43,864 nt of DNA. Origin: a virus (lineage: Duplodnaviria; Heunggongvirae; Uroviricota; Caudoviricetes). Shown here piece by piece: positions 36,969-38,046 of this stretch. The DNA lies in the IMG/VR virus record IMGVR_UViG_2698536620_000007; one strand, 5' to 3'. The position numbers were made by a program, and so were the translations under genes. The notes beneath the pieces are model-generated. The model saw nothing but the letters and a program-made list of their open reading frames with translations. It was not told the DNA's origin and ran no database searches. Each line of letters starts with the position of its first letter. Positions within the stretch are counted from its first letter, which is position 1.

Positions 36969-37112
36969 GCAGGATAAAAAAATGCCGCCGGTAAGGGAAA
37001 ACAAGAAACCGGCGGCAAAAAGATCGTTATATCCAAAGCAAAAAATGCAGTGCACCTTTTTACCTAACAGATATTACCGGTGTCAACACCATGTCAATAA
37101 TTGGGAGGGATA

Positions 37113-37295
37113 ATGACATTTTTACAGCTTATTTTATTGTATTTCTGCACGGCAGTATGTGCGTTATATCTGGTGAGTGGTGGTTATAAGGCCATCAGAA
37201 ATTATGTTCGCCGCAAAATTGAGGACGCAGCAGCTGAAAAACTCAGTAAAACAGCGCAGGTAACTCCGCTCCCAAAAGACCCGACCCAGCCCTGA
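37113..37295 (+). CDS. Small single-pass membrane protein
   Basis: ATG at 37113 preceded by GGGAGGG; 60 aa with an N-terminal TM helix (FLQLILLYFCTAVCALYLV). Confidence 0.35.
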   Translation: MTFLQLILLYFCTAVCALYLVSGGYKAIRNYVRRKIEDAAAEKLSKTAQVTPLPKDPTQP

Positions 37296-37330
37296 TTGCA
37301 GGGCTTTATTCCCGCATAAGGAGGATATAC

Positions 37331-37585
37331 ATGCCAGAAATTAAAGGCACCGTCACTGAAGACCTGGTAAAACAGGCACTGTATTCCGGTGAAGTAAATA
37401 AGTTGCTGAAAGCGCAGGTCCGCAAGGATTTTGAGGCACAAATCGACACTTACGTTGATGAAGTGCTGGCAAAACTTATTGGGCCAGCAGTTGCGGCCAG
37501 TGATGCTGATAATGAGCCGAAAACCGACGCGCAGCCAGAGCAACCAGACCCGGCTCAGCCCGGAACTGACAGTACCATGATGTAA
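37331..37585 (+). CDS. Small acidic protein, hypothetical
   Basis: Strong RBS AAGGAGG; 84 aa with a D/E/P-rich tail. Confidence 0.4.
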   Translation: MPEIKGTVTEDLVKQALYSGEVNKLLKAQVRKDFEAQIDTYVDEVLAKLIGPAVAASDADNEPKTDAQPEQPDPAQPGTDSTMM

Positions 37586-37752
37586 CAATACAAACCGGTG
37601 GTGTCCTCTGCCGGTTTGACACTAATGAAAACATCTTTGCCGCTATCCAGCCATATGTAATCGCTGGATAGTATTTCGTATTCAGAAATATAGCTGCTTA
37701 TGGAGCAGTCAATCCTGCTTCCCCATCCGGGCAGGCAAATGAACCGGTATCA

Positions 37753-38046
37753 TTAGTCCGATTCACGCTTTTGTAGAATCGTTCCCAGAATGCTATACAG
37801 CTCATTAGCCTGTTGCTCCATCATTGAGACGGAGGCTATACGGTGCAAAGTGATTTCAGGAGGTGGCACACCTCCATCTTCTTGCTGTGGAGGAAAAACA
37901 TAAGATTTAATAAAAAAGTTGAAGCATATGAACTCTCCCGCACTCGAACTGTATTTGCAGGCATCTGAATAATCGGAAAAATAATCATTATAGATTTCCG
38001 CATTTTCAATCATTTTTCGATTTCTCGTCGTTACATGATTGTCCAT
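37753..38046 (-). CDS. Hypothetical protein, divergent from com (moron-like)
   Basis: 97-aa minus-strand ORF with RBS AAGAGG; embedded in an AT-rich segment. Confidence 0.4.
   Translation of the reverse strand: MDNHVTTRNRKMIENAEIYNDYFSDYSDACKYSSSAGEFICFNFFIKSYVFPPQQEDGGVPPPEITLHRIASVSMMEQQANELYSILGTILQKRESD

Follow-up and report, generated by a model that had tools for sequence, protein, structure and literature searches.

Do three small genes that lie side by side in a prophage form a single cargo? The question arises at the right end of a Mu-like Escherichia coli prophage, in a 43,864-nucleotide (nt) stretch of virus DNA (IMG/VR record IMGVR_UViG_2698536620_000007; the window) whose structural genes, with a mean GC content of 57%, are followed by gin, com and mom. 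An original prediction described an AT-rich, moron-like cluster of three small open reading frames (ORFs) with good ribosome-binding sites between an esterase gene and com, encoding a membrane protein, an acidic protein and a divergently transcribed 97-amino-acid (aa) protein. All three ORFs are present. Our analysis favours, with reasonable but far from complete confidence, two unrelated accessory insertions at the gin–com junction rather than one cluster. The first two genes (37113–37585) would be the tail of a four-part module made up of a NanS-p-type esterase, an antisense small RNA (sRNA)-like unit, DUF1378 and DUF826, and only the third would occupy a true moron slot (37620–38195). The sequence comparisons that follow give good support to the family assignments, the linkage of the module and the borders of the slot; functional roles are proposed more cautiously.

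ORF1 and ORF2 are not novelties but belong to known Pfam families. ORF1 matches DUF1378 (PF07125; E = 1.2e-31, 109.1 bits against a cut-off of 25), with residues 5–62 aligned to model positions 1–58/59, and phrog_494. Its listed frame spans 37101–37295 on the plus strand, but the TTG at 37101 has no Shine–Dalgarno sequence; we place the true start at ATG 37113, giving a 60-aa small membrane protein (37113–37295), because GGGAGGG lies 5 nt upstream, the start called by the Prokaryotic Genome Annotation Pipeline (PGAP) is identical and every homologue begins MTF. The predicted single-pass topology agrees with one hydrophobic stretch at residues 3–21 (Kyte–Doolittle 19-residue maximum 2.27) in a protein with an isoelectric point (pI) of 9.3. 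The protein combines a single N-terminal transmembrane helix (residues 3–21), a basic amphipathic segment and a proline-rich end, and the motif LYFC...LYL.SGGY is conserved. ORF2 (37331–37585, plus strand, preceded by AAGGAGG) encodes an 84-aa protein that matches DUF826 (PF05696; E = 6.4e-16, 58.7 bits against a cut-off of 25) and phrog_311 (E = 4.9e-28), and its homologues carry precomputed PF05696 annotation; the taxonomic range of the family is confined to E. coli/Shigella. Both PHROG families are annotated as 'unknown function'. ORF2 is acidic with a D/E/P-rich tail, as predicted (pI 4.2), and ends in a conserved TMM. Its AlphaFold2 model has a helix at residues 10–17, and a long helix at 20–50 (predicted local distance difference test (pLDDT) above 90); its acidic, proline-rich tail is disordered (pLDDT below 50).

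All three ORFs behave as protein-coding genes under purifying selection, since pairwise Nei–Gojobori comparison with diverged copies gave ratios of nonsynonymous to synonymous divergence (dN/dS) of 0.14–0.30 for ORF1, 0.09–0.29 for ORF2 and 0.36 for ORF3; dS is saturated between the Mu-like and lambdoid copies of DUF1378 and DUF826. The description of the locus as AT-rich holds only in part: ORF3 (40% GC) and the ORF3–com spacer (34%) fit it, whereas ORF1 (45%) and ORF2 (50%) depart less from the structural backbone.

ORF1 and ORF2 are tied to the esterase gene upstream of them. This gene (34914–36968, plus strand), the head of the module, encodes a 684-aa NanS-p-type sialate O-acetylesterase with a lineage-specific N-terminal region of about 110 aa, a SASA catalytic domain (Pfam E = 1.5e-13, 51 bits) and a DUF6645/NanS-p C-terminal domain (E = 7e-68, 226 bits). 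In PDB searches the SASA domain matched NanS (3pt5, E = 1.8e-117) and the C-terminal domain NanS-p (6yp6, E = 7e-98), and the protein matches phrog_143 (E = 1.7e-296). NanS-p esterases let pathogenic E. coli use the O-acetylated sialic acids of mucus, and Shiga toxin (Stx) phages carry them beside toxin genes. In the Stx phage VT2-Sakai, the gene order is stx2AB, nanS-p, DUF1378, DUF826, holin S and R, and a 2023 survey of Stx2a phages mentions DUF826/DUF1378 ORFs between nanS-p and S (PMC10462455). We tested this linkage in both directions in IMG/VR, retrieving loci through DUF1378 and then through the esterase C-domain. DUF826 lies downstream in all 80 loci of the first set, and an esterase C-domain upstream wherever the contig is long enough. 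Fifty of them are lambdoid, with the order DUF1737-SASA-C esterase, DUF1378, DUF826, S and R; the other 30 are Mu-like, with gin, an esterase in which a new N-domain precedes SASA-C, DUF1378, DUF826, the slot, com and then mom or a C5-methyltransferase. Conversely, both small genes are present in every esterase locus with a DUF6645-type C-domain and room downstream (72/72), and neither is present in two loci whose esterase has an alternative C-domain. Likewise, in enteropathogenic E. coli (EPEC) E2348/69 the esterases have the alternative C-domain and both small genes are absent. A scan of genome contigs with DUF1378 returned pattern matches, none of which was confirmed by tblastn.

The three protein families of the window recur in the Stx lambdoid phages 933W and VT2-Sakai, with their order and spacing preserved. 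The esterases are homologous across the SASA and C-terminal domains to the protein end, DUF1378 shares 53% identity with its counterpart between nanS-p and S, DUF826 is about 40% identical with the terminal MM included, and an antisense terminator-bearing unit likewise lies in the esterase–DUF1378 spacer. The settings differ, however. In the Stx lambdoid phages, the module belongs to a Q-dependent late operon, between Q/stx and holin S, and DUF826 is followed by S–R–Rz; in the window it is housed by a transposable Mu-like prophage, between gin and com, with a cargo slot and com/mom coming after DUF826. The esterase N-terminus here is also not DUF1737: residues 1–110 (34914–35240) have no Pfam match and stand where lambdoid NanS-p has its DUF1737 domain. 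In tblastn searches, the N-terminus of the VT2-Sakai esterase matched lambdoid loci and not Mu-type loci, except the hybrid locus L017. As an observation on the enzyme itself, the N-domain type follows the phage backbone, as with the adaptor domains of tail-associated enzymes. The module would have been transplanted from Stx-type lambdoid prophages, or be common to them and the Mu-like prophage, with the esterase N-terminal domain exchanged.

Compared with canonical Mu-type phages, the window has about 3.4 kb extra between gin (34256–34828) and the com ATG at 38303; the whole gin–mom interval of SfMu is only 1.5 kb (PMC4406740). The right ends of Mu, D108 and SfMu (G segment–gin–com–mom) share with the window gin, com, mom, the com–mom overlap and GATC-containing control DNA upstream of com, but lack the esterase module and cargo slot. 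The claim that the three genes have no counterpart in Mu therefore stands: among 50,697 phage records (megablast/blastn for DNA), the DNA and the DUF826 and ORF3 proteins match only two Mu-like inserts in Stx phages.

Mosaic loci join the two architectures. One (L017) fuses an esterase with a lambdoid DUF1737-type N-terminus to a Mu-like DUF826–ORF3–com–mom end, another (L077) links gin and a Mu-type esterase to lambdoid DUF1378–DUF826–S–R, and in four more (L028–L031) the spacer and DUF1378 are swapped. L017 and L077 suggest homologous recombination between unrelated prophages via the common esterase module, or mis-assembly. The full gene set is retained in all mosaic loci despite internal recombination, which argues for selection rather than mere hitch-hiking. 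Separately, four loci (L049, L052, L060 and L072; about 2970–4700) contain a decayed lambdoid module in which the esterase has no SASA domain and DUF826 is cut at residue 51; downstream, a different frame holds part of the alternative (E2348/69-type) esterase C-domain, and the arrangement looks like a junction between two esterase-module types. We rejected an apparent fusion of DUF826 to this C-domain as a Rosetta-stone fusion, because the parts are in different frames and the locus is decayed.

The spacer between the esterase and DUF1378 contains an unannotated element on the minus strand, predicted to yield an sRNA-like transcript of about 77 nt (36976–37052) that is antisense to the spacer and abuts the esterase stop codon. 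The putative RNA consists of a small 5′ hairpin, a U/A-rich single-stranded stretch, a terminator hairpin (36983–37017) with a 10-pair stem (nine G–C) and, directly after it, a U7 run (36976–36982); RNAfold returns −23.5 kcal/mol (z = −5.0). Its promoter-like element (37057–37086, minus strand) overlaps the DUF1378 5′ leader of the opposite strand and combines a −35 TTGACA (37086–37081), an 18-nt spacer and an A-rich −10 TAAAAA (37062–37057), with a second TTGACA at 37097–37092. We compared 32 unique spacer variants from 85 lambdoid and Mu-like loci. The variants form several sequence-unrelated families with different stem sequences, yet all 32 keep a hairpin (−14 to −22 kcal/mol) followed by a U7–8 run. 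A −35/−10-like pair is present in 30 of the 32, with a TTGAC-type −35 (TTTAC in one), a 16–19-nt spacer and an A-rich −10; the exceptions are PasA and PasC.

PasA and PasC are sRNAs validated in EPEC by northern blot and RNA interaction by ligation and sequencing (RIL-seq; PMC8550237), and lie between sialate esterase and holin (Zhu et al. 2026 preprint). The PasA coordinates (PMC8550237, table S6), mapped on E2348/69, fall at the same position and on the same strand as the window unit. PasA and PasC (EcOnc51/52-like, in EPEC and enterohaemorrhagic E. coli) are likewise antisense and directly downstream of a sialate esterase gene; each has a length of about 80 nt, a TTGACA box upstream and, at its 3′ end, a strong terminator with poly-U. 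They replace DUF1378/DUF826 in E2348/69, whereas the window unit accompanies both. Searches by blastn found no match to PasA/PasC at the spacer site (E up to 10), and a covariance model built from the window-type spacer family (CM R1), which scores the window unit at 81.7 bits, detects neither PasA nor PasC (E up to 10). Homology to these sRNAs is therefore not supported, and we call the unit PasA/PasC-like by position and architecture only. Membership in Rfam Esr41 (RF02676) was also rejected (22.2 bits against a gathering threshold of 102); Esr41 is encoded on SpLE1 and not beside an esterase (PMC5286369). The unit has no significant similarity to any Rfam family.

A simpler account would treat the minus-strand hairpin and U-run after the esterase as a protective terminator against antisense transcription, with no discrete sRNA. 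That account accommodates the non-canonical −10 and the lack of significant similarity to PasA/PasC or any Rfam family, but leaves unexplained a TTGAC-type −35 held at 16–19 nt from an A-rich box, 75–105 nt upstream of the terminator, in all variants other than PasA and PasC, and PasA and PasC themselves are experimentally established at the same position and strand in EPEC. We consider the protective terminator doubtful. If the element is instead an sRNA-like unit, as we favour, it could reduce transcriptional read-through to DUF1378 and DUF826 during lysogeny.

Transcription of DUF1378 and DUF826 bears on whether they are morons. A promoter consensus scan found no plus-strand promoter-like site upstream of DUF1378, and on the plus strand the hairpin that follows the esterase stop is preceded by A7 and lacks a trailing T-run, which occurs on the other strand only. 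The two genes are thus most simply read through from the esterase transcript, and are probably part of the esterase transcription unit rather than lysogen-expressed morons, judging by these signals. On this proposal, they would be made in lytic growth.

A rival reading, in line with the original prediction, would place all three genes among independent lysogenic-conversion morons with exclusion, anti-defence or toxin-like functions, with the small membrane peptide acting against superinfecting phage at the inner membrane. The products are indeed small, membrane-bound or acidic and have no structural role, GC content is below that of the backbone, Mu has no counterpart, and variability of the slot fits accessory cargo. 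For ORF1 and ORF2, however, the evidence points elsewhere: they are fixed esterase companions in two phage types, they sit in the lambdoid late operon directly before S, and no promoter of their own was detected. Replaceability of the moron type is seen for ORF3 only, and the moron description thus survives for that gene, which is rare, low in GC and housed in a replaceable slot with conserved borders. Nor was a defence or toxin function recovered. Searches of the three products with PADLOC-DB v2 hidden Markov models returned only a chance-level match of DUF826 to PbeC (12.9 bits, E = 0.0076), PDB sequence searches with DUF826 and ORF3 gave no match below E = 0.09, and fold searches with the small proteins gave no informative match. 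The remote homology search that had been proposed as a check thus identified known families for ORF1 and ORF2 and one remote relative for ORF3, but a function for none of them. We judge it unlikely that the three genes are independent morons.

What, then, might DUF1378 and DUF826 do? We propose that DUF1378, with a transmembrane anchor and basic helix, and DUF826, with a long helix and acidic tail, could act as a membrane-anchored pair that assists the esterase, for instance with localisation, timing or release of the enzyme, rather than as lysogen-expressed exclusion genes. That the pair works with the esterase during lytic growth is a tentative suggestion, which we hold as possible and well short of even; modulation of lysis and exclusion at the membrane are the alternatives to it. 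As lysis-timing modulators, the two proteins would act on the holin or the membrane in the manner of an antiholin or co-antiholin, and would be passengers with the esterase in the Mu-like phage. Such a role agrees with their placement in all 50 lambdoid loci, where holin S and endolysin R come directly next, and with the make-up of the pair, in which a soluble helical protein accompanies a single-pass membrane protein, a combination that resembles T4 RI/RIII. Yet the Mu-like copies are under purifying selection far from lysis genes and have no lambdoid pinholin nearby, E2348/69-type prophages have the same holin/lysozyme cassette without DUF1378 or DUF826, and presence of the pair follows the esterase C-domain type and not the holin. 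A role in lysis timing therefore appears improbable, and we return to the esterase-partner proposal as the preferred, if tentative, one.

Downstream of DUF826, a different kind of region begins. In an alignment of five Mu-like lineages, homology ends at about 37620 and resumes at about 38195, roughly 105 bp upstream of com, and the interiors are unrelated; in the window, this replaceable cassette (37620–38195) is 576 bp long with 39% GC. Its left border is marked by a hairpin read from the sequence (AAACCGGTGG...CTGCCGGTTT, 37592–37617), which is kept in all five lineages, homology stopping just beyond it, and which is a probable terminator for both convergent units. Its right border is marked by a palindrome (AATCGATCG-N7-CGATCGATT, 38235–38259) with two GATC (Dam) sites, also flagged as a hairpin by the scanner, whose perfect 9-bp inverted repeat lies 44–68 nt upstream of the com ATG and is invariant in all five lineages. 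Mu Pmom is under Dam/OxyR/C control, and by analogy the palindrome probably serves this group of phages as the C/Dam/OxyR-type control site for the mom operon.

The slot cargo in the window is ORF3, here named ORF97. CI5 carries a 79%-identical version, M18 a 175-aa zinc-ribbon/transmembrane protein, FORC_069 a 99-aa and a 68-aa minus-strand gene plus a 78-aa gene, and an Sp18-like element a 64-aa zinc-ribbon protein. Among IMG/VR Mu-like loci, 10 have ORF97 in the slot, 13 have the FORC_069 type and 1 has neither. The ORF97 cassette is present in 18 of 5426 complete E. coli genomes, in up to three copies per genome, and absent from the collection of 50,697 phage records. As in classical morons by the HK97/lambda definition, the cassette has deviant GC content, conserved flanks and unrelated alternatives in sister phages. 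The alternative cargos gave only function-unknown PHROG or zinc-ribbon matches and were negative in PADLOC. In the Sp18-like lineage, com is followed not by mom but by a 350-aa C-5 cytosine DNA methyltransferase (Pfam E = 2e-42), as seen in a Mu-like insert in the Stx2c phage LC727881 (L006, 6044–7295), in L023 and in two further IMG/VR loci; the DNA-modification gene after com has thus been swapped.

ORF97 (37753–38046, minus strand, AAGAGG upstream) encodes an orphan 97-aa acidic protein (pI 4.7) with four predicted β-strands and a C-terminal helix, and diverges from com as first described, 256 bp apart. PGAP calls an 86-aa form from Met12; in the CI5 homologue (P0010) the residue there is Thr and the upstream start is retained, and we favour the 97-aa reading because this homologue has no internal Met. 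Terminator-like hairpins lie downstream at 37694–37708 and at the slot border, and a consensus scan found 3 promoter-like sites against 3.3 expected by chance. Only close homologues were found among 5.8 billion proteins, and neither ORF97 nor the Yersinia cassettes described below match Pfam, PADLOC or NCBIfam families, with all PHROG matches of 'unknown function'. An assignment of ORF97 as DUF3467-like was rejected, as there was no Pfam match (E up to 1). An exhaustive HMMER search of 1.84 billion representatives identified one remote relative, P0015 of Yersinia enterocolitica, a protein of the same length with 31% identity over 80 residues (E = 1.7e-4 library-wide). P0015 is the first gene of a tight cassette encoding 97-, 95- and 123-aa proteins, directly downstream of a cI-type repressor in five of six contexts, a position that corresponds to that of lambda rexAB. 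The three genes of this cassette (L007–L012, positions 6001–6951) overlap, and in one case stand beside a large serine recombinase; the cassette is a candidate lysogeny-expressed system.

Because its only relative sits in this cI-adjacent 'rex' slot, we infer that ORF97 is prophage-expressed and of the exclusion- or defence-modulating kind. By that analogy, ORF97 is probably expressed from the prophage, and could act as a small dimeric or nucleic-acid-binding accessory protein; the gene has its own ribosome-binding site, an AT-rich upstream region and downstream hairpins. The comparison with lambda Rex extends to position of the relative and not to sequence: ORF97 has no homology to Rex or to catalogued defence or exclusion proteins, and its own slot is the gin/com junction of a Mu-like phage. 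That ORF97 is instead a small DNA-binding regulator of the divergent com–mom operon, acting on the shared intergenic region, is very improbable, because its divergent placement 256 bp from com and a β-sheet-plus-helix fold resembling the PC4/Pur-alpha nucleic-acid binders (a weak match) are set against a control region that is invariant in sister prophages while ORF97 is replaced or absent, and against a relative that adjoins cI in prophages with no com or mom in the flanks retrieved.

Several observations weigh against the interpretation of two insertions and the roles attached to it. E2348/69-type prophages keep the esterase and lysis genes without DUF1378 and DUF826, so neither protein is needed for lysis or for every esterase. 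The strict linkage to the esterase could reflect shared descent of one block and not functional dependence, and the roles given to DUF1378 and DUF826 are purely inferential. The proposed −10 of the antisense unit is without the final T of the canonical box, and no promoter was called there by the consensus scanner. The ORF97–P0015 link is one match at E = 1.7e-4, and P0015 belongs to a three-gene operon whereas ORF97 stands alone.

New at this locus are the Mu-like architecture around DUF1378/DUF826, the orphan ORF97 and the unannotated sRNA-like unit, a modest novelty: for annotation, a mystery cluster becomes two known DUFs in a new host architecture and one orphan. That two small genes and an antisense RNA unit accompany the DUF6645-type NanS-p esterase without exception, even in a Mu-type prophage, provides a handle on what these DUFs do. 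The esterase module also offers homology for recombination between unrelated prophages, and it would be worthwhile to screen the gin/com junction of Mu-like prophages, a cargo slot, for genes of exclusion or defence. A bolder extension, which we think has little chance of holding in full, is that the esterase, antisense sRNA, DUF1378 and DUF826 form one functional cassette hopping between the lambdoid late operon and the Mu-like right end. In it, an esterase that has no signal peptide would have the small proteins as dedicated membrane-associated partners for its targeting, timing or non-lytic release, and the antisense RNA would control whether the cassette is expressed in a lysogen. Separately, ORF97 and its Yersinia relative would represent a new small-protein family of lysogeny and defence slots.

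Downstream of the slot, com (38303–38503, plus strand) encodes a 66-aa zinc-ribbon translational activator (Pfam Zn_ribbon_Com, E = 1.3e-12) and is followed by the DNA modification gene mom (38487–39194, plus strand; Pfam Mom, E = 1.6e-77), which PGAP annotates as 'protein mom' at the equivalent position. Further upstream, two overlapping plus-strand ORFs in different frames (32288–32839 and 32562–33212) lie where the related prophage of strain JE86-ST05 is annotated with a single 293-aa gene, itself upstream of a tail-fibre assembly gene; this may mean that the tail-fibre gene is frameshifted or differs in its G segment. Directly after mom, the translation of 39413–39871 looks like a C-terminal fragment of an IS66-family transposase. 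The further large ORFs at 39925–43566 are unrelated to the JE86-ST05 flank (ybfB/rhsC), as would be expected if this Mu-like prophage had inserted at another site.

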